Below, in pieces: positions 5,679 to 27,290 of a stretch of 64,000 nt of DNA (position 1 is its first letter; every line of letters begins with the position of its first letter). The notes beneath the pieces were generated by a model. That model saw only the letters and a program-made list of their open reading frames with translations, had not been told where the DNA came from and did not search any database. Both the position numbers and the translations under genes were made by a program. Source of the stretch: Candidatus Avelusimicrobium gallicola (lineage in GTDB: Bacteria > Elusimicrobiota > Elusimicrobia > Elusimicrobiales > UBA9959). The stretch lies in contig DYLH01000003.1 in assembly GCA_020722185.1 (NCBI GenBank), forward strand, positions 4,377 through 68,376. The letters run 5' to 3'.

Positions 5679-5708
5679 ATTTCCTCCCTTCTAGATGATT
5701 ACATTGAT

Positions 5709-5714: not shown

Positions 5715-5718
5715 TAAA

Positions 5719-5738
5719 AAAAGCATAAGAAGGCTTTT
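5719..5738 (-). terminator. Weak hairpin AAAAGC-N8-GCTTTT followed by T-run, downstream of the PmbA-like gene
   Basis: 6-bp AT-rich stem plus TTT read on the minus strand. Confidence 0.3.
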
Positions 5739-5768
5739 AAAAAACTAAACAGGGTTCTCTGAATAGTT

Positions 5769-5782
5769 CTTAAGCGCTTAAG
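5769..5782. repeat. Perfect 14-bp palindrome CTTAAGCGCTTAAG
   Basis: Read directly. Lies 3 nt downstream of the PmbA-like stop codon, at the operon boundary. Function unknown. Confidence 0.9.
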
Positions 5783-5784
5783 CT

Positions 5785-7470: not shown

Positions 7471-7487
7471 TTTTCCTCCAAAATATT

Positions 7488-9176: not shown

Positions 9177-9210
9177 CTTGCCTCCGCAATAAAACAATGG
9201 TATTAGTTTT

Positions 9211-10044
9211 TTAAATTGAGCAAAGCGCTCTAGAGAGAAAAACTGAAACTATTCTCATTCTATAATCAGAAGTGGAGCGAATATCAGTCAAAGGACTAAT
9301 CTCTTCTCTTATCAGCTGACAAGCCTTTGTCTGCGCCTTAGATGGATTTTTCCCTTCAAGATATTCCTCTGTTTTTTTAGCCCTAACTACAGATGGCGCC
9401 ACGGATGAAAGAGAAATTGAAACATCTCTAAGTTTCCCCTTTTCCAATTTATAGCACATACACAGGCCGGCTTTGGCTATGCCAAACCTTTTCCTGTGCA
9501 TCATCTTCATAAAAATTGATTTGCGTTCTTCCTTTGAAACTATAAAACCCTCGATAAGCTCGTCTTTTTTAAGGTCTATTTTTTTAGGTCCTTTGACTAT
9601 AGAAAGTATATCAACCACTCTCCTTTTGTCATAGAGATTGAGCATAACCTTGGCCCTTAAAGCGGCTAAAGCTAAAACGCCATCGGCGCAAGGTGAGGCA
9701 TTCGCATAATTGCCTCCAAGAGTGGCGGTATTCCTTATGGATGGCGAAGCATAGTATTTCACACATTCAGATAAAGCTGAAGCCCATTTTTTTATAAGAG
9801 GATTACTCTCAAGCTCGCTTATCTTGACGGCCGCGCCTATGAAAATATTCTTGCCATCTTCTTTTATTTCTTTCAATCTATCTATATCGCTTATGTCTAG
9901 CCATACAGATGATTTATCATTTCCACATGATAAAGAAATTACAAGGTCAGTCCCACCAGCCAAATATTTCCTGTCAGAAGGAAGTTTTTTGACAGATTTC
10001 CACAAATCTTTGAGGGTGTAATACTTTTCTATATATTCTGGCAT
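9211..10044 (-). CDS. XDH-family FAD-binding medium subunit (set 1)
   Basis: YLAGGTDLVISL, ATLGGNYANASP and a CO-dehydrogenase-flavoprotein-like C-terminus. ATG overlaps the FeS-subunit stop (TAATG). Confidence 0.9.
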   Translation of the reverse strand: MPEYIEKYYTLKDLWKSVKKLPSDRKYLAGGTDLVISLSCGNDKSSVWLDISDIDRLKEIKEDGKNIFIGAAVKISELESNPLIKKWASALSECVKYYASPSIRNTATLGGNYANASPCADGVLALAALRAKVMLNLYDKRRVVDILSIVKGPKKIDLKKDELIEGFIVSKEERKSIFMKMMHRKRFGIAKAGLCMCYKLEKGKLRDVSISLSSVAPSVVRAKKTEEYLEGKNPSKAQTKACQLIREEISPLTDIRSTSDYRMRIVSVFLSRALCSI

Positions 10045-10511
10045 TATTTCTTTCTTCTAGCTTTATCAATGGCCCTAAATATATTTTCATACCCCGTGCA
10101 TCTACAAAGATTTCCCGCAAGACCTTCCTTTATCTCATCTAAGGTGGCTTTGGGATTTTTTGAAAGTATTTCTTGGGCGGCTATTATAAATCCCGGGGTA
10201 CAGAAACCGCACTGAACTGCCGCTTCCTTGACAAATGACTCCTGCAATTGAGCTCCGTATTTATGCTTGTGTATCCCTTCTATGGTGACAATTCTTTTCT
10301 GATGGGCTTGCACAGCCATGACGAGACAAGAGTTTACAGCTCTGCCATCCATCAGAACCATACATGCCCCGCATTCTCCCTCGCCGCATCCTTCTTTGGT
10401 TCCTTTAAGACCAAGCACATCCCTTATAAAATCAAGCAAACGCAAGGACGAATCTATTTCAACTTTAACTTTCTTTCCATTCACTTCGCATTCAAGCTTA
10501 AACTTTTTCAT
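10044..10511 (-). CDS. XDH-family [2Fe-2S] small subunit (set 1)
   Basis: GCGEGECGACMV...SC and QCGFCTPGFII...LCRCTGY. Confidence 0.93.
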   Translation of the reverse strand: MKKFKLECEVNGKKVKVEIDSSLRLLDFIRDVLGLKGTKEGCGEGECGACMVLMDGRAVNSCLVMAVQAHQKRIVTIEGIHKHKYGAQLQESFVKEAAVQCGFCTPGFIIAAQEILSKNPKATLDEIKEGLAGNLCRCTGYENIFRAIDKARRKK

Positions 10512-10583
10512 ATCTTTTATTATTAAAACTTAGAACCAAGGCCTAGAACAAATCTGGAACCACTAAAAGTAAGCTTATTGCTT

Positions 10584-11681
10584 TCATCCGCTCACATTCC
10601 TTGAAAAAATAGTGCCATTTGCCTCAGCCCTGTATTCCATGAAAAAAGTGAGATTGTCCACATTAAATCTTATACCTATCGGCACCCTGAACATAATGCC
10701 CGGGGAGCTCTCGTTTAGTGATTTATTATAGGCATCCTTTATAGTGTTTGACTTTATATTGTTTATAGAAAGGCCAAGCCCTAAGCCGGCATAAAGATTG
10801 GCCTTAGGATTTGCCTTAGTTAGAGTTCTAATTAATAGGTCGCCACTTAATCCTATTGAAGTGGCGTCTATATAGCCAGAAGGCAAATTTAAAGGCCCAC
10901 CTGAGACATACACTTTCTGTGCGTCGCTGTAATGCTTTGAAACTGACAATTCAAAATCGCCGCCCAGTATGCCTTTTCCAAAACCACCGACTCTTATACC
11001 TATAGGACCGCCGCCAGTGGCTTTGAGCCCATTCATTTCAGCTCCGCCATATTTATTCTCATCCCATTTTATATCCATAGTTTGAGACCCAGCGCCTAAT
11101 ATCACATCAAAAAAACTATACCCATGCTCGCCCCCCACATAAGACTTTGAAACCTTATTAATGTTGGTGGTATTCTGCTGATATACTGGCTTTGACTGGG
11201 GGGCATCTCCACCAAGCCAGTCCTTAATAACATAAACACTAGATGCGCCAATTGCCTGAGCAGTTTCAGTTTTTATCAATCTGGCATTAACTTCTATTTT
11301 CCCATCATTTGTAGGGATAAGCGTGCCTGTTATAATAGCATCCACGCCGAGCACCTTCCCAAGATCTTTGGCGCTAGTTGGGTCTATGGCTCCGGAATTT
11401 TGCAGTTTTAGCTCATCTAAAACTTTATTTAAAACGCTTCTTTCTATTATTTCAAATTTTTGCATATTTATGAGCTTCATTGTAAGTCTTTCACTTATCA
11501 CAAAGCCATCTTTTGTGGAGGAGGTATTGTCTGCATATGAAAAAGGAATAACAGCTATTTTCTTAACGTCCTCCCCATAATTTGCCAATTCAGAAGCCAT
11601 TTTATCGTATGAGTCCTGAGAGTAGGAAAAAACAGACATCCAAGAAATGATGAAAAAAGACAGAAACATTCTTTTAGACAT
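10584..11681 (-). CDS. Putative outer-membrane protein: N-terminal CsgG/FlgO/LpoB-like domain plus Gly-rich beta-barrel-like C-terminal half
   Basis: Signal peptide MSKRMFLSFFIISWMSVFSYSQ. KIAVIPFSY...ERSVLNKVLDELKLQ...LGVDAIITGTL pattern. C-terminal half has alternating Gly/aromatic strands. Confidence 0.5.
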   Translation of the reverse strand: MSKRMFLSFFIISWMSVFSYSQDSYDKMASELANYGEDVKKIAVIPFSYADNTSSTKDGFVISERLTMKLINMQKFEIIERSVLNKVLDELKLQNSGAIDPTSAKDLGKVLGVDAIITGTLIPTNDGKIEVNARLIKTETAQAIGASSVYVIKDWLGGDAPQSKPVYQQNTTNINKVSKSYVGGEHGYSFFDVILGAGSQTMDIKWDENKYGGAEMNGLKATGGGPIGIRVGGFGKGILGGDFELSVSKHYSDAQKVYVSGGPLNLPSGYIDATSIGLSGDLLIRTLTKANPKANLYAGLGLGLSINNIKSNTIKDAYNKSLNESSPGIMFRVPIGIRFNVDNLTFFMEYRAEANGTIFSRNVSG

Positions 11682-11822
11682 GGAGAACCTCTAAAGAATA
11701 ATGATAGCATATTTCAGATAATCATAATCCTAGGAAACTGTCATTTTCTTCTTTTGAAAAAGCGCTTGTATTTAGAAAAAATAAACAGATAATAGTTGCA
11801 GAACAAATATAAAACTTTTTTC

Positions 11823-14093
11823 TCATATTTCTTCCCCTATTTTTTCTAAAACTATTTCTGGAGTCATAGGCGCAGAATTAATCTTCGCTTTGCAAGCCTT
11901 TTTTATCGCATTTCTAATGGCTGGAGCCACACCTATCAATGGCACTTCCCCCATACCCTTGGCTTTATATGGGCCATATTTGTAGAGCTTTTCCTTAAAA
12001 CTTATATCGTATTCTGGCGCATCTGTAGAAATGGGCAAAACATAATCGGTAAAATTTGGGTTTAACATAATGCCATTTTTTATTACCAGATTTTCATATA
12101 GCGCCCAACCCATGCCCTGAAGTATGCCTCCATGTCCTTGAGCTTGAGCAAGTTTTGGATTTATCAGCCGTCCTACATCATAAGCCGCATATATTTTTTT
12201 CACCTGAACTTCTCCAGTCTTTACATCAACTTCTACATCTGCCACATCCGCGCTATATGAATAGATAACATAGGCATCGCCCTGACCATTCTCTTTTTGA
12301 AAGCTTGTTTTGGGCGCCACATACCATCCCTGCTCGCTCATTTTAAGACGCCTGCCCCAACATTCTCTTATCACCTCGCTAAAAGAAACTTTTCTATCCT
12401 TGAAATAAAAGTAACCTCCGTAGGCAAACATCTTTTGACCGGAAGTTTTGAGCATATCTGCCGCAGTTAAAAATATTCTCTCTCTTAAAGGAGCGCAGGC
12501 CTCTATAATTGCATTACCGCTCATAAGAGTTGTTCTGCTGGCCACAGTAGGTCCACTGTCTGGGACTTTGGATGTGTCCACTTCTGAAATTCTTATATTT
12601 TCCATCGAAGCATTTAGTGTTTCAGCCGCTATCTGGCTTAAAACTGTAAGAGCTCCCTGTCCCATCTCAGTATTGCCAACATCAACTTTTACAGATCCAT
12701 CCTTGTAAATATTCACAAAAGCCCCAGCTCTATCTAAATATCTTCCCCCCGCTCCTAATCCCACCCCATAATATGTGCAAGAAAATCCAAGCGCTCTTTT
12801 CTTGTCTCCAATTGATGTGGGAGTATTTTTTATCCATTTTGATCTATCCCTAACAATTTCAATCAATTCTTTAATTCCGCAGGATGAATCAAGTTTCTGT
12901 CCTGTGGCGGTTTCGTCTTTGGTTTTGAGTATATTTTTCAATCTAAATTCAATAGGATCCATTCCTATTTTATCAGCGAGATCATCAATCAATGATTCCT
13001 GCGCAAAACATATCTGAGGCTGGCCAAAACCTCTATAAGCGCCGCAAGGGACTTTATTTGTGGCAACGGCTTTGGCCTCTATAAAAACATTTTCTATTTT
13101 GTATGGTCCCGCGGCATGCACTGCGCCTCGCCATAAAACTATGGGAGACAATGTGCTATAAGCGCCACCATCCAAGACATAATCCACTACGCAGGCTTTG
13201 AGCTTTCCATTTTTATCTGCGCCATATGAAACCTTGGCCCAAGAGGGATGCCTTTTAGACATACTCATAAAGTCCTCTTTTCTATCGTAGGCAAGGCGGA
13301 CAGGTCTTTCAAATTTCATTGCGCAAATTGCGGCATGAGAGGCCACAAGAGCAGGCACATCCTCTTTCCCGCCAAAGCCGCCGCCGGTCACAGTCTGTAT
13401 AACTTTTATTCTGTTGTTGGGAAGCCCTGTGGCCGCTGAAACAGCATCTAATACATAAAATGGACATTGAGTTGACGAATATACAGTTAAGCTTCCGTCC
13501 TTTTCAGGCACGGCTGTGGCAGTCTGAGTTTCTAGATAGCAATGAACTTGATAATTTGTCTTGAATTCTCCTTCCACAACAAAATCGCATTCTTTCAAAG
13601 CTTTAATGGCATTTCCTTTCTTTATCGTGTAAGATGAAAAGATATTGTCTTTGCCATATATTTTCAATGAATTTTTCTCCAGAGCTTTTAGTGGATCATC
13701 TATAAAAGGCAATTCTTTATAAGAGATCTCAATCAAAGATGCGGCTTTTTTGGCAGCTGAAAGTGTCTCAGCCACGGCCAAAGCCACAGTTTCAGAATGA
13801 AATCTGGCTTCCTTTTCCGGCAAAAATGGATAATCTTTCATCACCACTGGCCAGGCATTAACTCCCTTTATGTCCTTGTAAGTTACCACTCCAAGATAGC
13901 CGGTAATTTCTCTAGCTTTTTTATCGCTTATTTTTTTTATCTCAATTCTTGGTCTTGGATTTCTTACAGCCCTTGCATAAACCATACCGGGGAAAATCAA
14001 ATCATCTCCGTAAAAAGCTTCACCCCTGACCTTGGCTGTGGCATCCACTCTTTCAACTGGCTTTCCAATGAAAGAAAAAAACTTATTCTTCAT
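11823..14093 (-). CDS. Xanthine dehydrogenase-family molybdopterin-binding large subunit (set 1, 756 aa)
   Basis: TGGGFGGKEDVP, CGAYRGFGQPQ, YKAKGMGEVP. ATG overlaps the xdhC stop (ATGA). Confidence 0.92.
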   Translation of the reverse strand: MKNKFFSFIGKPVERVDATAKVRGEAFYGDDLIFPGMVYARAVRNPRPRIEIKKISDKKAREITGYLGVVTYKDIKGVNAWPVVMKDYPFLPEKEARFHSETVALAVAETLSAAKKAASLIEISYKELPFIDDPLKALEKNSLKIYGKDNIFSSYTIKKGNAIKALKECDFVVEGEFKTNYQVHCYLETQTATAVPEKDGSLTVYSSTQCPFYVLDAVSAATGLPNNRIKVIQTVTGGGFGGKEDVPALVASHAAICAMKFERPVRLAYDRKEDFMSMSKRHPSWAKVSYGADKNGKLKACVVDYVLDGGAYSTLSPIVLWRGAVHAAGPYKIENVFIEAKAVATNKVPCGAYRGFGQPQICFAQESLIDDLADKIGMDPIEFRLKNILKTKDETATGQKLDSSCGIKELIEIVRDRSKWIKNTPTSIGDKKRALGFSCTYYGVGLGAGGRYLDRAGAFVNIYKDGSVKVDVGNTEMGQGALTVLSQIAAETLNASMENIRISEVDTSKVPDSGPTVASRTTLMSGNAIIEACAPLRERIFLTAADMLKTSGQKMFAYGGYFYFKDRKVSFSEVIRECWGRRLKMSEQGWYVAPKTSFQKENGQGDAYVIYSYSADVADVEVDVKTGEVQVKKIYAAYDVGRLINPKLAQAQGHGGILQGMGWALYENLVIKNGIMLNPNFTDYVLPISTDAPEYDISFKEKLYKYGPYKAKGMGEVPLIGVAPAIRNAIKKACKAKINSAPMTPEIVLEKIGEEI

Positions 14094-14887
14094 TTTTCCC
14101 CCAAAATGCTCATATGCTTCCCGCTCTTGCCATAGTAAATCTTAAGTATTTCAGCAACGACACAAACAGCTATTTCCCCCGGAGTTTTTCCGCCAAGTTC
14201 CAGCCCTATGGGCGAGTAAACTCTGCTATCAATTTTAATGCCCTTCTTTTTGAGATCTGATATAATAGTTCTTACCTTTGAATCGCTTCCTATCATACCT
14301 ATATAATGCGCTTTTGTCTTGACAGCCTCTCTCAGGCACTCGGCGTCAAGGCTATGCCCTCTGGTCATTATCACCACATAAGTCTCACTGTCTATTTTTG
14401 CTTTTTTAAAAGCTTTATCTGGAAATTCGTTTATAATTTCAAAAGCCTCTGGAAAATTTTCCTTGCAGGCAAAATCCTTTCTATCGTCAGCAACACTATA
14501 TGGCAAACCTACTATGGAAAGGACTCTGCCCAATTGCTTTGCCACATGCCCGGCGCCACATATAAAAACTTTCAAAGGGGTTTTATAAACATCTATAAAA
14601 ACTTCAATTTTACCCATACACAAAGCGCCAATACCATTAGGCGTCAATTCAAAAGAAAATTTTCCGCTTTCACCTTTTTTTATGCACTCAACCGCTTTTT
14701 TTATGGTCAAGGACTCAATTTCTCCTCCACCTATGGTGCCATATATAGATCCATTTTCATAAACTATCATTTTTGAGCCAGATTCCCTTGGCGTCGATCC
14801 AGCAGAGGAAATTACTGTGACAAAAGCCACATTTTTTCTTTCGCTTATCGCATCGCTTAAAATTTTTATTATATTTTCTTCCATCAT
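14090..14887 (-). CDS. xdhC: XdhC/CoxI-family molybdenum-cofactor insertion accessory protein
   Basis: XdhC_CoxI N-domain (VTVISSAGSTPRESGSKM...GTIGGGEIE) and Rossmann-like C-domain (VFICGAGHVAKQL). Confidence 0.88.
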   Translation of the reverse strand: MMEENIIKILSDAISERKNVAFVTVISSAGSTPRESGSKMIVYENGSIYGTIGGGEIESLTIKKAVECIKKGESGKFSFELTPNGIGALCMGKIEVFIDVYKTPLKVFICGAGHVAKQLGRVLSIVGLPYSVADDRKDFACKENFPEAFEIINEFPDKAFKKAKIDSETYVVIMTRGHSLDAECLREAVKTKAHYIGMIGSDSKVRTIISDLKKKGIKIDSRVYSPIGLELGGKTPGEIAVCVVAEILKIYYGKSGKHMSILGEK

Positions 14888-14949: not shown

Positions 14950-14973
14950 AAAAAGCACATTTATTATTTTATC

Positions 14974-15174
14974 TTAAAAAAAGCCAATATAGAAAACAAT
15001 TAATGTCAAAGGGGCGCCTATCCTGAAGAATTCCCAGAAAGGAATACTCTCTTTTCCCCTATTTTCTGCGTTCTGTATAAACATCACATTGCTGGCAGCC
15101 CCAACTCGTAAATATCGCGCTTGTCTTAGAGATATGAGGACCGAAACTGACAGCAATACTGCAATTTCTATCAT
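14974..15174 (-). pseudogene. 66-aa ORF resembling only the C-terminal end of an ArsB/NhaD/CitMHS-type anion permease (likely gene remnant; may still be translated)
   Basis: GAASNVMFIQNAENRGKESIPFWEFFRIGAPLTLIVFYIGFF matches the family C-terminal pattern as I recall it (G-S-x-A-N...I-x-F-x-x-F...G-x-P-x-T-L). ATG overlaps the upstream stop (ATGA). No upstream permease sequence. Confidence 0.4.
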
Positions 15175-15923
15175 TTTCTGCCAATCAGTCTGAGGATGCC
15201 ATCAAGTATTGTCATAGGATTTGGCGGGCAACCGGGGATGAAAAGGTCTGGTTTTATATTAGGTGGAAGGCCTGCCATCATTGGCATACCACGATAAATC
15301 CCCCCACCTATAGCGCAAGATCCCACAACTATGACAAGTTTAGGAGCTGGCACAGCATCATAAGTTTTTTGCAAAGCGGCATACATATTCCTTGTCACAG
15401 GCCCAGTGATGAGTATACCATCCGCATGCCTTGGCGAAGCGACAAATTGTATTCCAAATCGGGCCATATCAAAAACGGGAGTGCCAAGCACATTGCAATC
15501 TGCCTCGCAGGCATTGCATCCACCAGCGCTTACCTGTCTGAGCTTTAGAGATCTTCCAAAAATTTTTTTTATTTCTGGTTTTGCTACAACATTCTTTTTT
15601 TTAAAGCCGTCTTTTACTATCAAATCCTCTCTTGAAGAAACAGCCATAGACCATGTCTTTGAGAATTTTACAGCTTCAGGCATTTTAGCTGAACACAGTC
15701 CACAAAAGGTGCAATTCCCAAGATCCATACTCATCTGACTGCCATTCTTTGAGAAACAATCACATGGACAAATCTCTGAAAGCTGTTTTTTTTCTTCATC
15801 GCTTAGTTTAGAAAAATTAGTTTCTGGAAAGCCCCTGTATCTGCCTGAAAGCTTTATATTTCTGAAAGGGAAATGCGAAGTTTTATTGCCCTGTTTTATC
15901 CTTGCCAGTATTTCTTTTATCAT
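15171..15923 (-). CDS. Fused HycF-like (degenerate ferredoxin) plus HycG/HyfI/NuoB-like small subunit of a group-4-hydrogenase-type module
   Basis: N-domain parallels HycF (KQGNKTSHFPF...YRGFPE; CPCDCF; CTFCGLCSAKMP). C-domain is NuoB-like (GGCNACEADCN, SPRHADGILITGPVT, VVGSCAIGGG, IPGCPPNP). Start at ATG 15923 with GAGG 5 nt upstream. Confidence 0.85.
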   Translation of the reverse strand: MIKEILARIKQGNKTSHFPFRNIKLSGRYRGFPETNFSKLSDEEKKQLSEICPCDCFSKNGSQMSMDLGNCTFCGLCSAKMPEAVKFSKTWSMAVSSREDLIVKDGFKKKNVVAKPEIKKIFGRSLKLRQVSAGGCNACEADCNVLGTPVFDMARFGIQFVASPRHADGILITGPVTRNMYAALQKTYDAVPAPKLVIVVGSCAIGGGIYRGMPMMAGLPPNIKPDLFIPGCPPNPMTILDGILRLIGRK

Positions 15924-15930
15924 ATCAGCC

Positions 15931-17376
15931 TCACAAATCATGTCCGCAATAAGAAAGATTGAAACTCTTATTGCACAAAGGGAAATCTGAAATTTTGGCA
16001 TCTCTCAAAGCTATAGAAAGCCCCTGCCAATTGTGAAAAGATGGGTCTTTTATCTTGTAGAAAGAGATATTGCCATTTTCATCAGTTATACATACATGAG
16101 AAATCTCGCCACGCCAGCCTTCTGTAAGCGCCATAGCCAGAGAATTGGGCTTAAGCGATTTGCTCTCAACTGATATTGGGCCTGACGGCAAATTATTCAT
16201 CCAATTCTTTATCAATTTGTAAGACTTTTTTATTTCCATCCACCTCATATAGGCTCTGGCAAATACATCGCCATTTAATGTTAGTGGTTCAAGTTCATAA
16301 TCCTCATAGGGATAGATATGAAATAAGGCTCTTATATCAAATGGCACTGAAGATGCCCTTGCAACTGGCCCAACCAGTCTAAGTTTCAAAGCCTGTTCTG
16401 TTGTAACAGTTCCCGTTTTTTCAAATCTATCCAGAACCGACTTTTTATCCCACAAAAGAGAAATGGCAGAGACAGCGTCCTCATAGGCCTTATCAAACTT
16501 AGACATCATCTCTTCAGTTATTTTCTCATCCACATCAAAGGCCACTCCGCCGGGAACTATGAAATTTCTTCCAAAACGATTGCCGCACAAAATAGCCGTA
16601 GTATTGAGTATATCTCCTCTTATTCTCCCACAAAAAGACGAAGTTGGCAAATAGGCAACATCTCCGCTTAAAGCGCCGATATCTCCTACATGATTTGCCA
16701 TTCTTTCAAGTTCCAGAGCTATCCCTCTTAAACTCGCGGCTCTTGGCGAAATTTCACAAGAAGAGAGAGCCTCATAAACCTTGGCAAATGTCCACGCATG
16801 ACCTATGCTTGTGTCTCCCGCCACGGTCTCTATAAGAGGCAAAAATTTATTTTTTTTCACCTTTGGAATGGCATTTTCTATGCCTCTATGCTGATAGCCA
16901 AGTTCTATTTGCAAATTGAAAACATTTTCGCCAAGGCATTGAAAACGGAAATGCCCCGGCTCTATAACTCCGGCATGCACTGGGCCTACGGCAACTTCAT
17001 GTATTTCATCTCCGCCTAATCTGAAATATTTTCCGCTTGAAGCCGTTAAGCCATTTTCATATCTAACCGGATTTGGAAACGGATGACCGTCTATCTTTAA
17101 TCCTGTCTTTTCAGCTATTTCCCTTTCGAAAAGATGTAATTGTGGAAAAAAAGTGGAAAGAGAGGTTATTTTTTCTCGCACATTAGAGCAAATAATTTTT
17201 ATTTCACCGCTTTTAGACAAAAGACATGCAAATAGTTTAAAATCTGATCCCTGCGGCATGGCAAAATAAGAAGATATTCCACTCCCCTTTGAAAGCTCTG
17301 TGGAAAGCTCGCTAAAAAAATCTTTGCTTTCCAGAACTTCAATATTTTCAAGCGGCTCAACTATAAAATCTTTCAT
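15931..17376 (-). CDS. HycE/HyfG/NuoCD-like large subunit lacking [NiFe] Cys ligand motifs (Ehr-like)
   Basis: NuoC-like N-domain (LHLFEREIAEKTGLKIDGHPFPNP) and NuoD-like core (GPVHAGVIEPGHFRF, LGYQHRGIE). There is no CxxC anywhere in the 481 aa. Confidence 0.85.
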   Translation of the reverse strand: MKDFIVEPLENIEVLESKDFFSELSTELSKGSGISSYFAMPQGSDFKLFACLLSKSGEIKIICSNVREKITSLSTFFPQLHLFEREIAEKTGLKIDGHPFPNPVRYENGLTASSGKYFRLGGDEIHEVAVGPVHAGVIEPGHFRFQCLGENVFNLQIELGYQHRGIENAIPKVKKNKFLPLIETVAGDTSIGHAWTFAKVYEALSSCEISPRAASLRGIALELERMANHVGDIGALSGDVAYLPTSSFCGRIRGDILNTTAILCGNRFGRNFIVPGGVAFDVDEKITEEMMSKFDKAYEDAVSAISLLWDKKSVLDRFEKTGTVTTEQALKLRLVGPVARASSVPFDIRALFHIYPYEDYELEPLTLNGDVFARAYMRWMEIKKSYKLIKNWMNNLPSGPISVESKSLKPNSLAMALTEGWRGEISHVCITDENGNISFYKIKDPSFHNWQGLSIALRDAKISDFPLCNKSFNLSYCGHDL

Positions 17377-17377
17377 T

Positions 17378-18895
17378 TTATCCTCTCAAAAACCACAAGA
17401 ACAAGAAGGAAACAAACATAGAAGATAGGAAAAAAATTTGCGAAGGAATAAGCAGTTTTTTAAGCTGAGGAGACTCATCCTTTTCAGTTTCTTTTGAACC
17501 AAAAAGTGTAGAGAAAAATATTCTGCCGAGTCCACCGAATATGATTATAAAAGCCAATATTATGAAAATCGCAGTATAGTAATTCCCCGAAGAAAGGAAA
17601 GCTTTTATAAGGAAAAATTTTGGCAAAAATAAAGGCGATGGCGGCGCTCCGGAAAGAAGTATAAATCCTATAAACCACACAGCAGACATAGTCGGTGTTT
17701 TTTCAACCATAGATTCAATGTCTGAAAACTTTTTGCTTTTATATTGAAAAAAGACCAAACCAGCCAAAAAAAACATACCTGACTTTATCAAAGAATGTCC
17801 AATAGCATTTATAAAAATAAACTGTTTTGTGTTTTCATATCCGGCAATTGAGGATATGCCCAATAATAGGCACATCAAACCCATATTCTCCACACTTGAA
17901 TACGCAAGAGCCCTTTTATACTCTCGCTGATTTATTATGAAAACAGCAGAAATAAAAAGGGTAAATATACCGAAAACAACCATAATTGAAGATGAAAAAG
18001 ATTCAAGACCTGCTGATGAAACTATTAGATGAGATTTCCATATGGCCAAAAATGCGCAATTTAGCAATGCCCCGGAAAGAAGAGCAGAGACCATTGAAGG
18101 AGCTTCGCTGTGCGCGTCTGGAAGCCATGTGTGCATAGGCGACAGTCCCATCTTTGTCCCATATCCGACAAACAAAAATATAAAGGCAAGTTTAAGCCAA
18201 AGTGTATTAAAGGAATTTGTTGAATATAAATCAGATATATAGAGGGAACCGCCTGAAGAAGAAGCCGCAATAGAAAGAAAGAATGTGCCCAATAAAGCTA
18301 TGGCTATCCCTACTGAGCACACAACTAAATACTTCCATGTTGCCTCAAGGGATTTTCTGCTTCTGTGAAAATATATCAAGGGAGCAGAAAAAAGCGTGGT
18401 GGCTTCTATGGCTGCCCACAAAAGGCCCATATGATTGGAAAAGCACACAAGGGTCATCGAAGCAAGAAATAAAAGCATAAAACCAGAGAAAACCGTCTCA
18501 GGCTCATCATTTATTATAAATCCCTCTTCATCTTTCCTTATGTTTTTTTCTTCCATAGGCAAATATCCCATAACATAGTAGGATGCGCCTAGAAAAAGCA
18601 AGGATACTATCATAAGAAAAACTGCATTTTCAACATTTCCAGAAAAAGAGGAAATAAAAAGCGAATTTGAATTTGAAATAGAAATATTGTCAATGTATAA
18701 TTGAGGGAAAACAAGAAGGGCTGAAACAAGAAAGTGGAAAAATCCAGCAATAAATAGCACGCTTCTTTTCTGAGAATTAGATCTAAGTAAAAAGCAGATT
18801 ATACTGGCAATAATGGGCATGATGATTAAAAAAAGCGAAAATTCCTTAAAGCAAGATATAGAACAATCTCTCAATAAATCAATAATTGAAATCAT
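17378..18895 (-). CDS. hyfF: HyfF/NuoN-like antiporter-type membrane subunit
   Basis: 505 aa polytopic. Proton-conducting-membrane-transporter motifs (WLPDAHSEAPSMVSALLSGALLNCA). ATGA overlap with the upstream gene. Confidence 0.85.
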   Translation of the reverse strand: MISIIDLLRDCSISCFKEFSLFLIIMPIIASIICFLLRSNSQKRSVLFIAGFFHFLVSALLVFPQLYIDNISISNSNSLFISSFSGNVENAVFLMIVSLLFLGASYYVMGYLPMEEKNIRKDEEGFIINDEPETVFSGFMLLFLASMTLVCFSNHMGLLWAAIEATTLFSAPLIYFHRSRKSLEATWKYLVVCSVGIAIALLGTFFLSIAASSSGGSLYISDLYSTNSFNTLWLKLAFIFLFVGYGTKMGLSPMHTWLPDAHSEAPSMVSALLSGALLNCAFLAIWKSHLIVSSAGLESFSSSIMVVFGIFTLFISAVFIINQREYKRALAYSSVENMGLMCLLLGISSIAGYENTKQFIFINAIGHSLIKSGMFFLAGLVFFQYKSKKFSDIESMVEKTPTMSAVWFIGFILLSGAPPSPLFLPKFFLIKAFLSSGNYYTAIFIILAFIIIFGGLGRIFFSTLFGSKETEKDESPQLKKLLIPSQIFFLSSMFVSFLFLWFLRG

Positions 18896-19554
18896 TTCTG
18901 CGCCTCTTCTTCAAATACTTCTCTGAGCTCGCCCAGACTGTCGCTGTCAGAATCTTTGAACTCCCTACCTATATGGAAAACGGCCATACCCATCACGAAT
19001 ATCGCCACGAAAATATCAAGCAGTATGGCGGCCTCAACCATCAAAGGTTGATGAATAAAAATAGCCGTTCCAAAACAATAAATGCCATTTTCTAGGACAA
19101 TATATCCCGTTATCTGGGAAACAGTCTGACTTTTCAATATTATTGTCAGAAAACCGCAGAATATGGTCATAAAAGAAGCCGGCAATATCCACGCGGAAGT
19201 TTCAACATCAAAATTGAGTCTTGTTGACAGCCACACGGAAACAAAAAAAATTAAAAGATACATAGACCAAGAAATGTGACCGTAGTATTCCCTTCTTTTT
19301 TCTTCATAAGCCGAGTTTTTCACAATTATTTTTTTTAGTATTGAAGGGAAAAAAAATCCTTTAAGTATTATCACAATTAGTGCAAAAATGAATGGTTCAA
19401 AAAAGAATTCTCTTGAATTAAGCAAAGGAAGAAAGGCCGCAAGCACGCCCTGAATGGCCGCCAGATCCACCAGCCTCTTAGTTGAGTGTGAAAAGAGGAG
19501 AAAGAAATTGCAAAATATTATAGCCAGTATGAGAAATTGTGATATAGTCTCCAT
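18892..19554 (-). CDS. hyfE: HyfE-like membrane subunit
   Basis: 220 aa, NuoK-like repeats, TGYIVLENGIYCFG motif typical of hydrogenase-4 component E. Confidence 0.8.
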   Translation of the reverse strand: METISQFLILAIIFCNFFLLFSHSTKRLVDLAAIQGVLAAFLPLLNSREFFFEPFIFALIVIILKGFFFPSILKKIIVKNSAYEEKRREYYGHISWSMYLLIFFVSVWLSTRLNFDVETSAWILPASFMTIFCGFLTIILKSQTVSQITGYIVLENGIYCFGTAIFIHQPLMVEAAILLDIFVAIFVMGMAVFHIGREFKDSDSDSLGELREVFEEEAQK

Positions 19555-19556
19555 AT

Positions 19557-20477
19557 CTATCCTTTTAAACTCTGAAAGACAAAAGCCATAATCGCCACCG
19601 AAAAAGCCGCCAATAGAAACTGAGGAACTCGCAAAAGCCTAACCCTTGCCATAACAGATTCCACAACTCCGGCCGATATGGCAACAATAGCTAGGCCGCT
19701 TATATAAATCAAAGAATCCAGCCAGAAAATTTCGCTATGTCTTGGCATTATTATGGCAGATACGAAAGAGCCTAAAATCCACAATTTAATGGCAGAAGCG
19801 TAAAAAATCAAACCTAGATCTGGTCCAGAATTGTCCAGGACCATAACCTCATGTATCATAGTCAGTTCAAGATGTGTATCAGGGTCGTCAAATGGCACTC
19901 TGGAGGTCTCACAGAGCATAACAATAAAAAGGGAGAGAACTATTAAAAAAAGCACAGGAGCATTTTCAACCCATAGGACTGGGCTAAGTTTTGAAAAAAT
20001 TCCATGCACCGAACTTTCCCCAGTTATTTTTGACAGTGTCAGTATAGACATAAAAAAGACTGGTTCAGCAAATACAGCAAATTGCGCTTCTCTTGACGCG
20101 CCCATACCTTCGAAAGGCGAGCCAGTATCCATAGCAGATATTATCAGAAGAAAACGCGAAAGCGCCAAAAGATAGACTATAAGTATAAAATCCCCACTGA
20201 AACTCAAAAGCCCGCTTTGTCCTCCAAAAGGCATTATCAAAGCCGCAATACAAGAAAGCGCTGCCATAGCGGGAGCGGCTATCCTAAAAATCAAAGTTGT
20301 CGTATTAGAATACACTATGCCCTTATTAAAGAGTTTGTAAATATCAAAGTAAAGCTGAAAAATATTTCTCCCCTGTCTCCCGCCAAAAAATGCCTTAACC
20401 CTATTTATTATTCCGGGAAGAATAGGCGCGGCAAAAAGAATTATTACAGCCTGTAAAAAAAGTTTTATATTTTCCAT
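19557..20477 (-). CDS. hyfC: HycD/HyfC/NuoH-like membrane subunit
   Basis: 306 aa. NuoH-family pattern (CETSRVPFDDPDTHLELTMIHEVM). Confidence 0.85.
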   Translation of the reverse strand: MENIKLFLQAVIILFAAPILPGIINRVKAFFGGRQGRNIFQLYFDIYKLFNKGIVYSNTTTLIFRIAAPAMAALSCIAALIMPFGGQSGLLSFSGDFILIVYLLALSRFLLIISAMDTGSPFEGMGASREAQFAVFAEPVFFMSILTLSKITGESSVHGIFSKLSPVLWVENAPVLFLIVLSLFIVMLCETSRVPFDDPDTHLELTMIHEVMVLDNSGPDLGLIFYASAIKLWILGSFVSAIIMPRHSEIFWLDSLIYISGLAIVAISAGVVESVMARVRLLRVPQFLLAAFSVAIMAFVFQSLKG

Positions 20478-22387
20478 AAAATTAAAGCTAACAAAGACAA
20501 AAATATGTAAAGAACATACATCCTGAGGTTTCCGCCGTGAATAAAGGAGAAAAAGGATGCCATCTTTCTCATCTTATCAATAGATGGTTTATATAAAGTT
20601 TCATAGAAAAAAGCTCTTGGATGGCTTGAATAAGAATTGTCAGAAGGAAAATATCCTCTTATCGCAGGGTATGAAGCCGAGGGCGGATTTATTATTGAAA
20701 AGAATTCTATAAGAGGGTTGGCAAATGAAGAACCAGTATATTGTATTTTTGGCGAAGAGGCCAGATATCCGCAATCCCATGTAGGAGCTAAATCCACTCG
20801 ATTTTCAGATACTATCTTTCTTCTCATGAACATAAAAACTGCAAAAAAGAAAATAGCACATAGATAAGTCCCGGTAAAGAAGATAAAAATTCTAGATATT
20901 TCATGCCATACATGAGATTCAGTTAAAATGGGACTAAACTTACTAAACAGAAAATTAAACGAAAAGTACGGCAAAATGCCTATGAGTATAGAGAAAAAAG
21001 ACAGTATAGCCATACCCGCCCTCATATATTTTCCAGTTTCCACTACGCTTTCTGTTTTTATTTTTCTGGGCGAGCCTAAAAACATCACAGAAAAAGCTTT
21101 GGCAAAGCATGCAAGAGCCAAAGCTCCAGTTATGGAAAGCGCCAAAACTGAAAAAACAGTGAAAAGACTGTCTGAAGAAAGAGCTTTAAAGGAGCAATAA
21201 TAAATTATGAATTCGCTGACAAAGCCATTTAAGAAAGGAAGCCCTGAAATAGCGGCTGAAGCAATGAGAAAGAAAAAAGCTGTCTGAGGCATTTTCCTGG
21301 CAAGCCCGCCAAGTTCATCTATTTCCCCTATTCCAGATGCCTGCATTACAGATCCAGCAGACATAAACAAAAGAGATTTGAATATGGCATGATTTAATGT
21401 GTGCAAAAAAGCCGCGCAAAAAGAAAGCATTGAGAGTTCATTAAATCCTTTCAAATTAAGCAATATGCCAAGACCCATAGCTATCATTATTATGCCTATA
21501 TTTTCTATGCTGTGATAGGCAAGAAGCTTTTTTATATTGTGTTGAGCAAGAGCAAAAATTACCCCAAGTATGCTTGAAATTATCCCAATTAAAAGTATCG
21601 TCCAGCCCCACGACTGCTGCCATGGTGACAAGAGTGAAAGAGCCCTGAAAATCCCATAAATTCCCATTTTTATCATTATTCCACTCATCAAAGCAGAAAC
21701 ATTTCCGGGAGCGGCAGGGTGGGCCTCCGGCAGCCATATATGTAGAGGAATGAAACCAGCTTTCAAACCGAAACCCACAAGGAAAAAGAAAAAAGCCAAG
21801 GTAGAGCCTGACATTGCAGGCGCAAAATTAAAATATGAATCCGAGGTCAAGGAAAAGGCGGCTATAAGAAAAAGAGCCCCTGCGCCATTGGCGCAAAGAT
21901 ATATCAATCCGGCCTTTTGAACCTCCTTTTTTTTGTGGTCTGTCATAACAAGAAAGAAAGAGGAAAAAGCCATAAGCTCCCAAAAAAGCAGGAACAGAAA
22001 AGCATTCTTTGAAAGCAAAACTCCACACATAGAGAAGACCAAAATATGAAAATTCATCCAGAAAAAATTCAGCTGTTTTTTCTCTTCCATCTTTTTAAGG
22101 TAATCATTACCATATATTGAAACTGCGACAACAATCAAATAGAGCGCAAGAAGAAAAAAACAAGACACATAGTCCAAGCGGAAATAAGTTAGAAAAGATG
22201 AATTATTTATTGGGGAAAATTTACCACCATAGGAAAGTTCAGCTAAAGCTCCCCCAAAACCTATTAGAGAGGCAAAAAAAGAAATTACTGAATTGATGAA
22301 ATTTACTTTTCTATATTTTGAAAAAACTGATAAATTCAAAAAAGCGGCAAAAAGAAAAATCAAAGAAGATGCAATAATTATTGCCAT
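20465..22387 (-). CDS. hyfB: HycC/HyfB/NuoL-like antiporter-type membrane subunit
   Basis: 640 aa. WLPEAHPAAPGNVSALMSGIMIKMGIYG. C-terminal extension with WDCGY...QYTGSSFANP typical of HycC/HyfB. Confidence 0.87.
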   Translation of the reverse strand: MAIIIASSLIFLFAAFLNLSVFSKYRKVNFINSVISFFASLIGFGGALAELSYGGKFSPINNSSFLTYFRLDYVSCFFLLALYLIVVAVSIYGNDYLKKMEEKKQLNFFWMNFHILVFSMCGVLLSKNAFLFLLFWELMAFSSFFLVMTDHKKKEVQKAGLIYLCANGAGALFLIAAFSLTSDSYFNFAPAMSGSTLAFFFFLVGFGLKAGFIPLHIWLPEAHPAAPGNVSALMSGIMIKMGIYGIFRALSLLSPWQQSWGWTILLIGIISSILGVIFALAQHNIKKLLAYHSIENIGIIMIAMGLGILLNLKGFNELSMLSFCAAFLHTLNHAIFKSLLFMSAGSVMQASGIGEIDELGGLARKMPQTAFFFLIASAAISGLPFLNGFVSEFIIYYCSFKALSSDSLFTVFSVLALSITGALALACFAKAFSVMFLGSPRKIKTESVVETGKYMRAGMAILSFFSILIGILPYFSFNFLFSKFSPILTESHVWHEISRIFIFFTGTYLCAIFFFAVFMFMRRKIVSENRVDLAPTWDCGYLASSPKIQYTGSSFANPLIEFFSIINPPSASYPAIRGYFPSDNSYSSHPRAFFYETLYKPSIDKMRKMASFFSFIHGGNLRMYVLYIFLSLLALILWKI

Positions 22388-22574: not shown

Positions 22575-23168
22575 CTATTGAATTTTTTTATAGTCTGACA
22601 TTGTGTCAAAATCTCGAATTATTCCTTCATCCTCAACAATTATTTCTTTTATTTCCACATCAGGATGATGTGTGACCCAGTGCAATCCCTTTTCAAGTGC
22701 GCCTATCATGCAAAGCTTTCTAAATTTCTGAGGTATCACTATCGGATGACCTCTCTTATATTTTTGATCCCCCTCGAGTTTTTTTAGAAATTTAGGGATT
22801 ATTATTCGGTCTGGATTCTCAGCGGAAAAAGAGGCTATTTTCCAATATGTCTCTTCTTTTATTAGAGGTTGATCCACAAGACATATCATTATATCACCCT
22901 CTGGCATTGAAGAAGCTGCAATGCGGAGGGAATGAAGCTGTCCTAATTGAGGCTTGTCATTAAAAAAAATTTTTTCTCCTGAGGGCTGCCAGTATTTAAG
23001 GATTTCTTCTCTGTCTTTTCCAAGAACGACAGATATTTCTTTTACCCCCGCTTTTTTTATTGAGGAAATTATTATGTCAATAAATGTTCTGCCTTTTAAT
23101 TCAAGAATCGCTTTGGGTTTCCCCATTCTTGATGAATTGCCGGCGGCAAGTAATATGGCAGAAAGCAT
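22575..23168 (-). CDS. mocA: MobA/MocA/YgfJ-family molybdenum-cofactor nucleotidyltransferase (probable cytidylyltransferase)
   Basis: AILLAAGNSSRMGKPKAILELKG N-terminal NTP-transferase motif. 197 aa. ATG directly abuts the upstream stop. Confidence 0.8.
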   Translation of the reverse strand: MLSAILLAAGNSSRMGKPKAILELKGRTFIDIIISSIKKAGVKEISVVLGKDREEILKYWQPSGEKIFFNDKPQLGQLHSLRIAASSMPEGDIMICLVDQPLIKEETYWKIASFSAENPDRIIIPKFLKKLEGDQKYKRGHPIVIPQKFRKLCMIGALEKGLHWVTHHPDVEIKEIIVEDEGIIRDFDTMSDYKKIQ

Positions 23169-24542
23169 CTATCTAAGTCCCGCTTTTTTGTAAAGTTTCA
23201 CAGCTACTTTATCAGCTTTTCTTTTGAGTTCCAATTCATCTATATTTTTGAGCATTCCATCCTCCACTAAAATTTTGCCATTAACTATAGTGTATTTTGT
23301 TCTCTGTGATGTGCCGCAGAAAAGAAGTGAAGCGATAGGATCTGATATTGAGCCTGCGTAGTCCAGTTTATTTATATCAAATATAGCCAAATCCGCAGCC
23401 TTGCCAACCTCAATTGTTCCTATATCATTTCTCCCCAAAGTCTCAGCGCCGCCTTTTGTGGCAAGTTTCAAAGCCTCTCTGGCGCTCATTGAGGATACAC
23501 CAGACTTTACTCTTGAAACAAGCATAGCCTGTCTGGCTTCGGCAAGCATATTGGATGAATCATTGGAGGCAGAACCGTCCACTCCCAATCCAACAGGTAC
23601 GCCTTTGTCTAAAAACATTCTGATTGGAGCTATTCCAGAGCCAAGCCTGAGATTTGAGCAAGGACAATGGGCCACAGCAGTCTTGGTCTTAGCCATTTTA
23701 TCAGCCTCTTTTTCATTTATAAAAACGCTGTGAGCAAACCAGCTTCTCCCATTTTCAAGCCAGCCCACACTCTCCATATATTCAAGAGGCCTCATCTTAT
23801 AAACTTTTTTGCAGTATTCGTCTTCATCGGCTGTTTCAGCTAAATGAGTGTGCATTCTCACATCCATTTTCTCAGCCATTTCAGCTGTCAGCTTCAAAAG
23901 CTCTGTTGTAACTGAAAATGGCGAGCATGGGGCCATAGCGATATTTGTCATAGCAAATTTATTCCTATCGTGATATTTTGAGATAATCCTTTGACAGTCC
24001 TTCAATATGAAATCCTCTTTTTGAACCACTTCATCTGGCGGCAGTCCACCATTTGAGCGTCCGCGAGACATTGAACCTCTGGTAGCGGTAAATCTTATCC
24101 CGATTTCTTTCGCAGCTTCTATTTCCGCATCTATAAATCTGTCGCTTCCCTTAGCAGGGAAAAGATATAAATGATCTGAACTTGTGGTGCATCCTGTCAG
24201 AAGTAATTCTCCAAGTCCAGTCATTGCGCTTATATATATGGCGTCTTCGTCCACATATTTCCAAATATCATATAGATAAACCAACCAGTCAAAAAGCTTC
24301 GCATCCTGAACAGCTGGTAAATTTCTTGTCAGAGTCTGGTATAGATGGTGATGTGTATTCACCATGCCGGGCATTACAATACAATTTTTTGCGTCAATAA
24401 CCTTTTTTGCTTTGAGGCGAATATTCTTTCCTATTTTTTTTATCTCTGGACCTTCTATGTAAATGTCGCAATCTTTCAGCTCTCTTCCCTTATCATCCAT
24501 TGTAACCAAAAAGGAAATATTCTTAATTAGAATCGAATCCAT
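23169..24542 (-). CDS. ATZ/TRZ-family amidohydrolase (8-oxoguanine/guanine-deaminase-like)
   Basis: VMPGMVNTHHHLYQTLTRNLPAVQDAKLFDWL, HLAET, HCPCSNLRLGSG, LGVDGSASND. Confidence 0.8.
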   Translation of the reverse strand: MDSILIKNISFLVTMDDKGRELKDCDIYIEGPEIKKIGKNIRLKAKKVIDAKNCIVMPGMVNTHHHLYQTLTRNLPAVQDAKLFDWLVYLYDIWKYVDEDAIYISAMTGLGELLLTGCTTSSDHLYLFPAKGSDRFIDAEIEAAKEIGIRFTATRGSMSRGRSNGGLPPDEVVQKEDFILKDCQRIISKYHDRNKFAMTNIAMAPCSPFSVTTELLKLTAEMAEKMDVRMHTHLAETADEDEYCKKVYKMRPLEYMESVGWLENGRSWFAHSVFINEKEADKMAKTKTAVAHCPCSNLRLGSGIAPIRMFLDKGVPVGLGVDGSASNDSSNMLAEARQAMLVSRVKSGVSSMSAREALKLATKGGAETLGRNDIGTIEVGKAADLAIFDINKLDYAGSISDPIASLLFCGTSQRTKYTIVNGKILVEDGMLKNIDELELKRKADKVAVKLYKKAGLR

Positions 24543-24575
24543 AAGATCCTCCTTAAAAATTAAATCTGATCCAAT

Positions 24576-27032: not shown

Positions 27033-27290
27033 AGTTTTCTCCATTAAAACTCGCATTACCCACAAGCGCATGAGAGCGCCAATCACAGAAACTCAGTCAA
27101 ATTGAACTATGCTTTCTAATCACCGATTCAGACACTTAAACACCTGACAGGTATTTTTGCCACACTTTGCAGTGTTTGGGCGTCTGCAATTCTCTCTTCT
27201 CAACTTATTTTACATTTTTGTCATTGATAATTGAATTATTTTTTCTAATAATATAGATATGTCTTTTGGTTTTTTTACAAAGGAGACAAA

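Follow-up and report, generated by a model that had tools for sequence, protein, structure and literature searches.

Embedded in a purine gene cluster of Candidatus Avelusimicrobium gallicola is a group of membrane-complex genes resembling those of a hydrogenase, and the locus raises the question of whether this module still acts on hydrogen and whether it works together with the purine enzymes that surround it. The analyzed stretch of DNA (the window) comprises 64,000 nucleotides of contig DYLH01000003.1. Its gene at positions 15931 to 17376 encodes a protein of 481 residues, for which an initial annotation, made from the sequence alone, had reported the loss of all canonical [NiFe]-site cysteine motifs and had proposed an Ehr-type (energy-converting hydrogenase-related) module. 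This assignment was upheld, as Ehr is the published name for such modules and the six genes from 15171 to 22387 match the Geobacter type of Ehr in both order (EhrA-B-C-D-L-S) and composition. The six genes very probably encode a member of the Ehr family and not a hydrogenase, and the locus belongs to a known, widespread family and is not a new kind of system. The genes are:

20465-22387, minus strand: EhrA, an antiporter-like membrane subunit of the HyfB/NuoL type, 640 aa (Pfam Proton_antipo_M, 1.3e-47)
19557-20477, minus strand: EhrB, a membrane subunit of the HycD/NuoH type, 306 aa (Pfam NADHdh, 9e-31)
18892-19554, minus strand: EhrC, a HyfE-like membrane subunit with a weakly NuoK-like C-terminal half, 220 aa (NCBIfam HyfE, 7.8e-12)
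17378-18895, minus strand: EhrD, an antiporter-like subunit of the HyfF/NuoN type, 505 aa (NCBIfam hydrogenase 4 subunit F, 2.2e-88, below cutoff)
15931-17376, minus strand: EhrL (ehrL), the large subunit, 481 aa, with a NuoC-like N-terminal domain followed by a HycE/NuoD-like domain
15171-15923, minus strand: EhrS, the small subunit, 250 aa, a HycF/NuoI-like ferredoxin domain fused to a HycG/MbhJ/NuoB-like domain (Pfam Oxidored_q6, 1.4e-24)

EhrL was compared with solved structures by phmmer, which retrieved HycE (7z0s_E) as the top match (1.4e-32), followed by Nqo4 of Thermus thermophilus and MbhL of Pyrococcus furiosus. An AlphaFold2 model of the EhrL monomer (pLDDT 81, pTM 0.86) matched HycE best in Foldseek (7z0s_E, E 3.9e-24, TM-score 0.82 over 496 columns) and the Escherichia coli NuoCD fusion next (TM-score 0.75-0.80), in keeping with the earlier description of the protein as collinear with HycE/HyfG/NuoD-type subunits. 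The NuoC-like N-terminal domain, also proposed earlier, is a marginal Pfam match (22.7 bits against a cutoff of 22.5) but is supported because the fold match to HycE and NuoCD spans the full length. The NCBIfam models for NuoD scored below their cutoffs (NF004739, 170.8 against 360 bits; TIGR01962, 136.5 against 459). All sequence strings quoted in the initial annotation were located in EhrL, namely LHLFEREIAEKTGLKIDGHPFPNP at residues 80-103, GPVHAGVIEPGHFRF at 131-145, LGYQHRGIE at 159-167, IETVAGDTSIGH at 182-193 and DFPLCNKSFNLSYCGHDL at 464-481. The nucleotide coordinates given for the two motifs (about 16807-16827, and 15934-15981) were slightly off and are amended here:

16798-16833, minus strand: IETVAGDTSIGH, the Ehr stand-in for the RxCGxCxxxH [NiFe] motif (alignments to HycE, MbhL and Nqo4)
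15934-15987, minus strand: DFPLCNKSFNLSYCGHDL, the Ehr stand-in for the DPCxxCxxR motif (HycE alignment and ungapped extension)

In the phmmer alignments, HycE DRVCGICGFAHS and MbhL ERMCGICSFSHN stand over EhrL ETVAGDTSIGHA. The segments VCGICGFAH of HycE and MCGICSFSH of MbhL are paired with VAGDTSIGH, which places the two N-terminal ligand positions at A186 and T189, and SLDPCY of HycE is paired with SFNLSY, which places the first C-terminal position at S475. Ungapped extension of the HycE alignment puts the second C-terminal position at G478, so that C477 is one position out of register with the C-terminal ligand cysteine of HycE. By the same extension, the last residue of EhrL (L481) pairs with the arginine of the HycE processing site; EhrL stops where mature HycE stops, and in the HycE alignment it has no cleavable C-terminal extension. 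We took the HycE ligands to be C241, C244, C531 and C534 and the processing residue to be R537, and the EhrL chain numbering agrees with this assignment. EhrL contains nine cysteines (residues 51, 63, 147, 207, 249, 264, 429, 468 and 477), and a scan of all 481 residues found, as had been stated, no CxxC arrangement, nor any C-x(0-5)-C pair. As aligned, EhrL is a HycE/NuoCD-type large subunit in which all four canonical [NiFe] ligand positions are occupied by residues other than cysteine; the alignment check proposed with the initial annotation, a search for four positionally equivalent cysteine ligands, found cysteine at none of them. Three further residues are kept, namely the proton-relay glutamate of hydrogenases (E139), the histidine of the first motif (H193) and the arginine of the 'PRG' motif (R422, in WRG here). 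In the alignment with Nqo4, MDYLH lies over VAGDT and PSTHG over AGVIE, which equates the quinone tyrosine with G187 and the quinone histidine with I138. The quinone-headgroup ligands are presumably Tyr87 and His38 of Nqo4 (T. thermophilus numbering).

The replacements are a property of the family. Among the best 120 EhrL homologues, which are 49-71% identical to the window protein, the four ligand positions are occupied by alanine (117/120), threonine (116/120), serine (120/120) and glycine (120/120), so that the loss of both motifs noted earlier extends to the N-terminal motif in 116-117 and to the C-terminal motif in all of these proteins. Each of G187, D188 and H193 is present in 120/120, and the residues at the complex I quinone-ligand sites, G187 and I138, are invariant across this set. 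In the C-terminal 18 residues, 12 are identical in 120/120 and five more in 115-119/120, and only residue 479 is variable (H/R/F). Five cysteines are conserved (C147, C264 and C468 in 120/120, C477 in 119/120 and C249 in 117/120). Invariant or near-invariant motifs include GPVHAG[VI]IEPGHFRFQC, LGYQHRG[VI]E, ET[LV]AGDT[TS]IGH, ELER[LM]ANHxGD[LI]G and DFPLCNKSFNLSYCGxDL, and these signatures are held across phyla though overall identity is only about 45-50%. Because the same replacements and the motifs around them hold in 120 homologues, the pattern is not explained by chance or sequencing error. The missing [NiFe] ligands are best described as a site that was remodelled and then fixed, and not as the outcome of decay, chance or sequencing error. 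In comparisons with the related loci L081 and L082, dN was 0.19-0.40 for all six ehr genes and dS was saturated or undefined, which makes this a qualitative signal only; in this qualitative sense, all six genes appear to be under purifying selection.

Ehr complexes are widely distributed. When one genome per species was scanned, at least 596 loci proved to encode a relative. The neighbourhood counts given here are based on 80 genome loci retrieved from that scan (L001-L080) together with 80 metagenome loci (L092-L171). Each of the other five Ehr subunits was found in 60-80 of the 80 genome loci, and most long metagenome loci carry the six-gene block. The genome loci belong to Planctomycetota, Verrucomicrobiota, Geobacteraceae, Desulfovibrionaceae, Spirochaetota, Acidobacteriota, Bacteroidota and others. 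The closest named relatives of the window EhrL are proteins from Elusimicrobiota metagenome-assembled genomes (71% and 68% identity), and the matches listed by the metagenome scan were all at most 49% identical. The window EhrL is 48% identical to its orthologue in Geomonas limicola and has the signature motifs in common with it. Geomonas sp. RF6 (L085) has the seven-gene form EhrA-1, EhrA-2, B, C, D, L and S, in agreement with the published complex of G. sulfurreducens (GSU0739-45). A database search with the Geomonas EhrL listed 120 Geobacteraceae-type matches, labelled only 'hydrogenase' or 'NuoC'. In the passages of PMC6349859, PMC10284858 and PMC4758237 that draw on Coppi 2005 and Marreiros 2013, the name Ehr is used for group-4-like modules without [NiFe] ligands, and Ehr has already been reported in Elusimicrobia (bioRxiv 10.1101/765248). 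The initial annotation had missed that Ehr is a described and very widespread family, reported from this very group. Published accounts define Ehr by the loss of the [NiFe] ligands, treat it as a non-hydrogenase and assign no role to it, which agrees with the earlier view that the module probably does not evolve hydrogen and has no assigned redox partner. Profile searches of the window proteins found no hyp or hycI genes in the 64-kb window, and such genes were not recurrent neighbours of Ehr at the 80 genome loci.

The small subunit retains iron-sulfur ligands that are lost or kept as whole sets. The longest open reading frame (ORF) for EhrS (15171-16001) overlaps ehrL by 71 nt; the start was assigned to the ATG at 15923, 7 nt past the ehrL stop codon, because homologue N-termini begin with MIKEILARIKQG and an independent gene call at locus L090 also gives 250 aa. 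Against solved structures, MbhJ was the top match of EhrS (7.2e-31), followed by HycG (2.4e-27) and HycF (1.1e-6 over residues 7-108). Two domains were delimited:

15180-15575, minus strand: NuoB/HycG-like domain with the proximal [4Fe-4S] ligands (alignment to MbhJ and HycG)
15600-15905, minus strand: ferredoxin-like domain with one [4Fe-4S] ligand set kept and one lost

The proximal-cluster ligands are complete (C136-x2-C139, C203 and C232-PP) and follow the CxxC pattern of hydrogenases, not the CC pattern of complex I; these cysteines are conserved in 49-51 of 53 Ehr family members. The ferredoxin-like domain keeps C52, C71, C74 and C77 and has L40, K45, L48 and M81 in place of the other ligand set. 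Cysteine occurs at each of these four distal positions in 45-48 of 53 EhrS sequences, and the full complement of eight cysteines for two clusters is found in 42/59. Since the lost and kept residues fit the ligand-swap rule of 2x[4Fe-4S] ferredoxins, one whole cluster has apparently been removed and the other preserved. By analogy with Nqo9, the lost cluster is presumably the outer, N6a-like one, and the kept cluster adjoins the proximal cluster. The distal set of four cysteines is gone in all six EhrS sequences of the Elusimicrobia clade (the window, L081, L082, L086, L088 and L089) as well as in L053, L074 and L080, which belong to unrelated lineages and represent independent losses. The loss of exactly the four distal-cluster ligands in the Elusimicrobia clade is a new observation. 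A predicted two-cluster electron wire is intact in the window EhrS, and most relatives have three clusters. This clean and recurrent loss suggests that the outer ferredoxin-type cluster is dispensable and that electrons from the donor can enter at the inner cluster. The window EhrL also has A198, S426 and F197 at positions where most family members have C, C and Y; across the family sequences compared, the loss of C198 and C426 showed no correlation with the loss of the distal cluster.

The membrane subunits keep charged residues that are expected of ion-translocating modules. For EhrA, hydrogenase 4 subunit B gives the best NCBIfam score (520 bits, short of the cutoff of 667), and E137, K209, K240, K337, E392 and K430 are at least 90% conserved among 61 family members. 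EhrD is closest to MbhH (6cfw_H) among solved structures and has conserved E164, K248 and K371, with an asparagine aligned to the lysine of SGLVIKIG in MbhH. In EhrC, residues 126-210 match Pfam Oxidored_q2 weakly (0.0054), and E85, E155 and E174 are conserved acidic residues. The conserved acidic residues of EhrB are likewise retained in the family alignment. The closest solved structure of EhrB is HycD (7z0s_D, 9.5e-30), with which it has the DTGSPF..GASRE motif in common. Its cytoplasmic loop ETSRVPFDDPDTHLELTMIHE (19860-19925 of the window, residues about 190-210) carries a 3-residue insertion and two histidines relative to HycD ..LPFDLAEAEQEL---QE, and this loop motif shows at least 90% conservation across the Ehr family. 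In complex I, this loop region links redox chemistry with pumping.

The second part of the question concerns the neighbouring genes. The Ehr operon is placed between xdhC and mocA, and the features that define this context are:

1991-5678: xanthine dehydrogenase (Xdh)-family set 1
9211-14093: xanthine dehydrogenase-family set 2
14972-15138, minus strand: remnant of a CitMHS-family transporter pseudogene in the 283-nt gap between ehrS and xdhC (tblastn with the CitMHS protein of L082)

The purine cluster (1991-14887 and 22575-28607) also holds XdhC, MocA, an 8-oxoguanine-deaminase-like amidohydrolase, SsnA and a YgfK-like fusion of GltD and PreA (836 aa). The purine genes of the window resemble a reductive uric-acid (2,8-dioxopurine) pathway published recently, whose demand is four electrons and whose reported hosts include Elusimicrobiota (bioRxiv 10.1101/2025.05.19.654654). 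Equivalents of HyuA, YgeW, YgeX and YgeY were not seen in the window. The purine enzymes (the Xdh sets and the YgfK-like protein) have their own FAD and NAD(P)H modules.

All proteins of the window cluster were searched by tblastn against the 80 genome and 80 metagenome loci, covering 10 kb around Ehr. Xdh-family, XdhC and MocA genes were found within 10 kb of Ehr at 0/80 genome and 0/80 metagenome loci, and SsnA-like or YgfK-like matches at no more than one of the 160 loci each. Relatives at 53-55% EhrL identity adjoin GlpA-like genes or an AI-2E-type transporter and not Xdh genes. Xdh-family genes adjoin Ehr only in this subclade of Elusimicrobia (0/160 loci elsewhere), which is a new observation, and the placement in a purine cluster, which had been presented as hard to explain, largely ceases to be a puzzle. 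Within the subclade, Ehr of L081 is followed by three unrelated genes and then by XdhC and the Mo subunit; in L082-L084 (68% EhrL identity) the order is MocA, two radical-SAM genes, Ehr, a CitMHS transporter, XdhC. Both in the window and in L081, xdhC is followed by a gene for the 756-aa Xdh Mo subunit. Its counterpart in L082-L084 is an ORF of 36 aa (about 12545-12655 in L082), and these loci keep XdhC, an intact Ehr and a PmbA/TldD pair despite the loss of the Mo subunit. An intact CitMHS gene of 408 aa occupies the same position in L081-L084; the window remnant covers residues 347-396 at 54% identity and then residues 398-408 in another frame. As L081-L084 keep the gene intact at that position, it was deleted recently in the window lineage. 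The absence of linkage at 160 loci, the loss of the Mo subunit with retention of Ehr, the unrelated genes and pseudogene in between, the FAD and NAD(P)H modules of the purine enzymes and the lack of a HycB-like connector together argue that the adjacency is lineage-specific. The position between xdhC and mocA is likely to be a matter of lineage-specific synteny, and Ehr probably works independently of the flanking xanthine dehydrogenase-family genes.

A weak promoter-like site was noted upstream of ehrA, and a TATAAT-like element is common to relatives; in a promoter and terminator scan around the operon, counts were near shuffle expectation. Rfam searches gave nothing at the gathering threshold across the window and nothing at E<=1 in either flanking gap. 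Recurrent neighbours were sought by clustering the ORFs of the flanks at the 80 genome loci, and the only one obtained was a PtsN-like regulator of HTH_17 and PTS_EIIA_2 domains, located about 0.1-0.5 kb upstream of ehrA in several phyla. It is present at 23/80 genome loci and at 15 of the 31 metagenome loci that span 12 kb or more (an example is 1764-2453 of L085), and it is absent from the window. This regulator may offer a lead to the physiological role of Ehr. Other recurrent flank clusters were discarded as antisense ORF artefacts of high-GC genomes, and no conserved redox-partner gene was found among the flanks of the 80 loci.

Several other genes of the purine cluster deserve mention. 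A gene for a putative lipoprotein resembling CsgG/FlgO/LpoB (10584-11681, minus strand) lies inside the second xdh set, between the Mo and 2Fe-2S subunits, and occupies the same place in L081 and L082. Two unusually long PmbA/TldD-like proteins (568 and 569 aa; 5785-9197, minus strand) with no obvious link to purines are encoded between the xdh sets, and this pair is conserved in L082-L084. At the edge of the cluster, a PurH-like protein of 497 aa (28710-30203, minus strand) matches the AICAR transformylase/IMP cyclohydrolase models over residues 99-496 only and below their cutoffs; it may be a divergent paralogue.

The explanation that accounts best for these observations, and which we regard as rather likely, is a Geobacter-type Ehr complex on a skeleton of formate hydrogenlyase (FHL) or Hyf type, in which a conserved pocket has replaced the [NiFe] site and which serves as a redox-driven ion pump without hydrogen chemistry and independently of Xdh. 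A low-potential donor, most likely ferredoxin, might dock on the HycF-like domain of EhrS, a step to which we give even chances; in the window lineage this domain would hold the inner [4Fe-4S] cluster only. The next carrier would be the proximal [4Fe-4S] cluster in the NuoB-like domain, for which the ligands are present, and this cluster would reduce an acceptor other than protons in the remodelled EhrL pocket at the junction of EhrL, EhrS and EhrB. The pocket is predicted to be lined by A186-G187-D188-T189, H193, E139, R422 and S475-Y476-C477. Menaquinone is the best single guess for the acceptor in the Ehr family, although a tentative one, and a thiol or sulfur compound comes second. The conserved glutamates and lysines suggest that the redox step would drive the translocation of H+ or Na+ through EhrB and EhrC and the antiporter-like EhrA and EhrD. 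As the module is genetically autonomous and has no conserved redox-partner gene, donor and acceptor should be molecules of a general pool. Several points weigh against this explanation. The donor, acceptor and ion are all inferred; the pocket loops of the EhrL model (residues 131-141 and 466-481) have pLDDT values below 50, which limits the geometry; and the link to the type example of G. sulfurreducens rests on Geobacteraceae relatives and gene order. In three genomes whose EhrL identity is no higher than 68-71%, Ehr is likewise flanked by MocA and XdhC, which leaves a small probability to a functional tie with purine metabolism peculiar to this lineage. The guess of a quinone is weakened by the absence of the complex I quinone ligands from EhrL (Tyr87 replaced by G187, His38 by I138) and by the report that some Ehr-bearing lineages are without quinone biosynthesis (PMC6349859).

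It is improbable that Ehr is the membrane partner of the neighbouring Xdh enzymes, in an FHL-like supercomplex that links the redox chemistry of purines or urate to the movement of ions across the membrane, or that it runs the other way and supplies low-potential electrons to the reductive uric-acid pathway. Ehr does lie between xdhC and mocA amid two Xdh sets, the YgfK-like reductase and SsnA, which are components of the four-electron 2,8-dioxopurine pathway, and relatives at 68-71% identity show the MocA...Ehr...XdhC arrangement as well. The linkage is nevertheless missing at the 160 other loci and in relatives at 53-55% identity, and L082-L084 retain Ehr without the Mo subunit. No HycB-like connector is encoded, the space between Ehr and xdhC is taken up by unrelated genes and a pseudogene, a promoter-like element precedes ehrA and the purine enzymes bring their own FAD and NAD(P)H modules. 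An acceptor-specific version of the preferred explanation, in which Ehr is a complex-I-like ferredoxin:menaquinone oxidoreductase, is possible but rather doubtful. Ehr has conserved counterparts of NuoH and NuoB, the subunits from which complex I builds its quinone chamber, and the literature suggests an interaction with quinone. The taxonomic spread fits as well: from general knowledge, most of the Ehr-bearing taxa among the 80 genome loci are respiring groups that we would expect to make menaquinone. Set against this are the replacement of the quinone tyrosine and histidine by glycine and isoleucine, the CxxC instead of CC ligation of the proximal cluster, the nearest relatives of every subunit, which are FHL and Mbh proteins not known to use quinone, and the occurrence of Ehr in the lineages reported to lack quinone synthesis (PMC6349859).

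The conserved cysteines lend themselves to two further readings. By analogy with ferredoxin:thioredoxin reductase or Hdr, the pocket could be a new catalytic site in which C468 and C477, possibly with C147, C264 and D188, carry out thiol/disulfide or sulfane-sulfur chemistry beside the proximal cluster. This is a long shot; if true, Ehr would be an ion-pumping ferredoxin:disulfide (or polysulfide) reductase, and the shortened form of Elusimicrobia might serve the electron balance of reductive purine fermentation. A cryptic hydrogenase or another metal catalyst with the non-canonical ligands C147, C249, C264, C468 and C477 plus D188 and H193 is very unlikely. Five cysteines and several histidine and aspartate residues are indeed invariant across the family, E139 and R422 are retained, and Geobacter grown on formate contains higher amounts of the Ehr subunits (PMC7894505). 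Yet the canonical positions are non-cysteine in 116-120 of 120 homologues, no C-terminal maturation extension exists, hyp and hycI are neither near Ehr in the window nor recurrent at the 80 loci, published assessments are all of a non-hydrogenase, and the pocket loops of the AlphaFold2 monomer, with pLDDT below 50, limit any statement on the spatial closeness of these cysteines. Least credible is a non-functional hydrogenase relic under relaxed selection, as stated for the Ehr of G. sulfurreducens KN400 in a 2026 paper (PMC13194489). The catalytic centre is lost, no phenotype is known and the window clade additionally lacks one EhrS iron-sulfur cluster and two common EhrL cysteines (C198 to A, C426 to S). 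The conservation pattern contradicts this reading: six ORFs are intact, motifs are invariant over many phyla, dN is far below the saturated dS, at least 596 loci occur in species-representative genomes and all Ehr subunits have been detected in Geobacter proteomes. The cluster loss is itself clean, in that one cluster is without its full set of four ligands and the other is untouched, and it has recurred independently.

Ehr complexes are among the most widespread relatives of complex I without an assigned function and are commonly seen as linking hydrogenases and complex I in evolution. The very strong constraint on the replaced [NiFe] site argues for real chemistry and against the recent statements that the complex is non-functional. 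In annotation, ehr genes should be kept apart from hydrogenases, NuoC and NuoD, and the surrounding purine cluster should not be taken for a purine-driven hydrogenlyase.

Compared with known systems, Ehr has homologues of the complex I core (NuoB, CD, H, I, K and L/M/N) with the same fold and conserved antiporter-like glutamate and lysine residues, but it differs in the absence of the quinone tyrosine and histidine, of NuoEFG, NuoA and NuoJ, and in the CxxC instead of CC at the N2-equivalent cluster. Membership of EhrL in NuoD/Nqo4 was rejected on the missing tyrosine and histidine and on NuoD model scores far below cutoff. The Mbx/MBS complex of P. furiosus (PDB 6U8Y), a sulfane-sulfur reductase, is likewise derived from group 4, pumps ions and has given up hydrogen chemistry. 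Its similarity to Ehr is far lower (MbsL 58 bits against 116 for HycE; MbsM 3e-9 against 9.5e-30 for HycD), and it has 13 subunits with an Mrp-type membrane arm, whereas Ehr has four membrane genes only. A sulfur reductase of this type was rejected for the lack of an Mrp-type arm and the closer match to HycE and HycD. The proximal [4Fe-4S] cluster of Mbx/MBS is reported to be the probable site of acceptor reduction.

The FHL/hydrogenase-4 complexes of E. coli (HycC-G, HyfB-I; PDB 7Z0S, group 4a) provide the best sequence and fold match for EhrL and the best match for EhrB; both domains of EhrS match as well (HycG and HycF), though MbhJ is the top match. The NuoC-like N-terminal fusion of the large subunit and the motifs EPGHFR and DTGSPF..GASRE are common to both. 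Unlike FHL, Ehr has no [NiFe] ligands, HycI-type extension, HycB connector or formate dehydrogenase partner, it fuses the HycF-like and HycG-like proteins into one polypeptide, and its EhrB loop is altered. Assignment of EhrL to the large subunits of group 4 [NiFe]-hydrogenases agrees in fold and collinearity and fails on the absence of both cysteine motifs. An FHL-like supercomplex with a molybdoenzyme is unsupported, on the absence of Xdh at 160 Ehr loci, the loss of the Mo subunit in L082-L084 and an operon without a HycB-like gene, although functional coupling to Xdh keeps a small probability in the window clade. Relative to the Ehr of Geobacter (GSU0739-45), which has both EhrA-1 and EhrA-2, the window has a single EhrA, no upstream HTH_17-PTS_EIIA_2 regulator, an EhrS without the distal cluster, the residues A198, S426 and F197 in EhrL and a purine/urate cluster around the operon. 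The two agree in their set of subunits, in gene order, in a large subunit without [NiFe] cysteines and in a small subunit that carries the proximal cluster.

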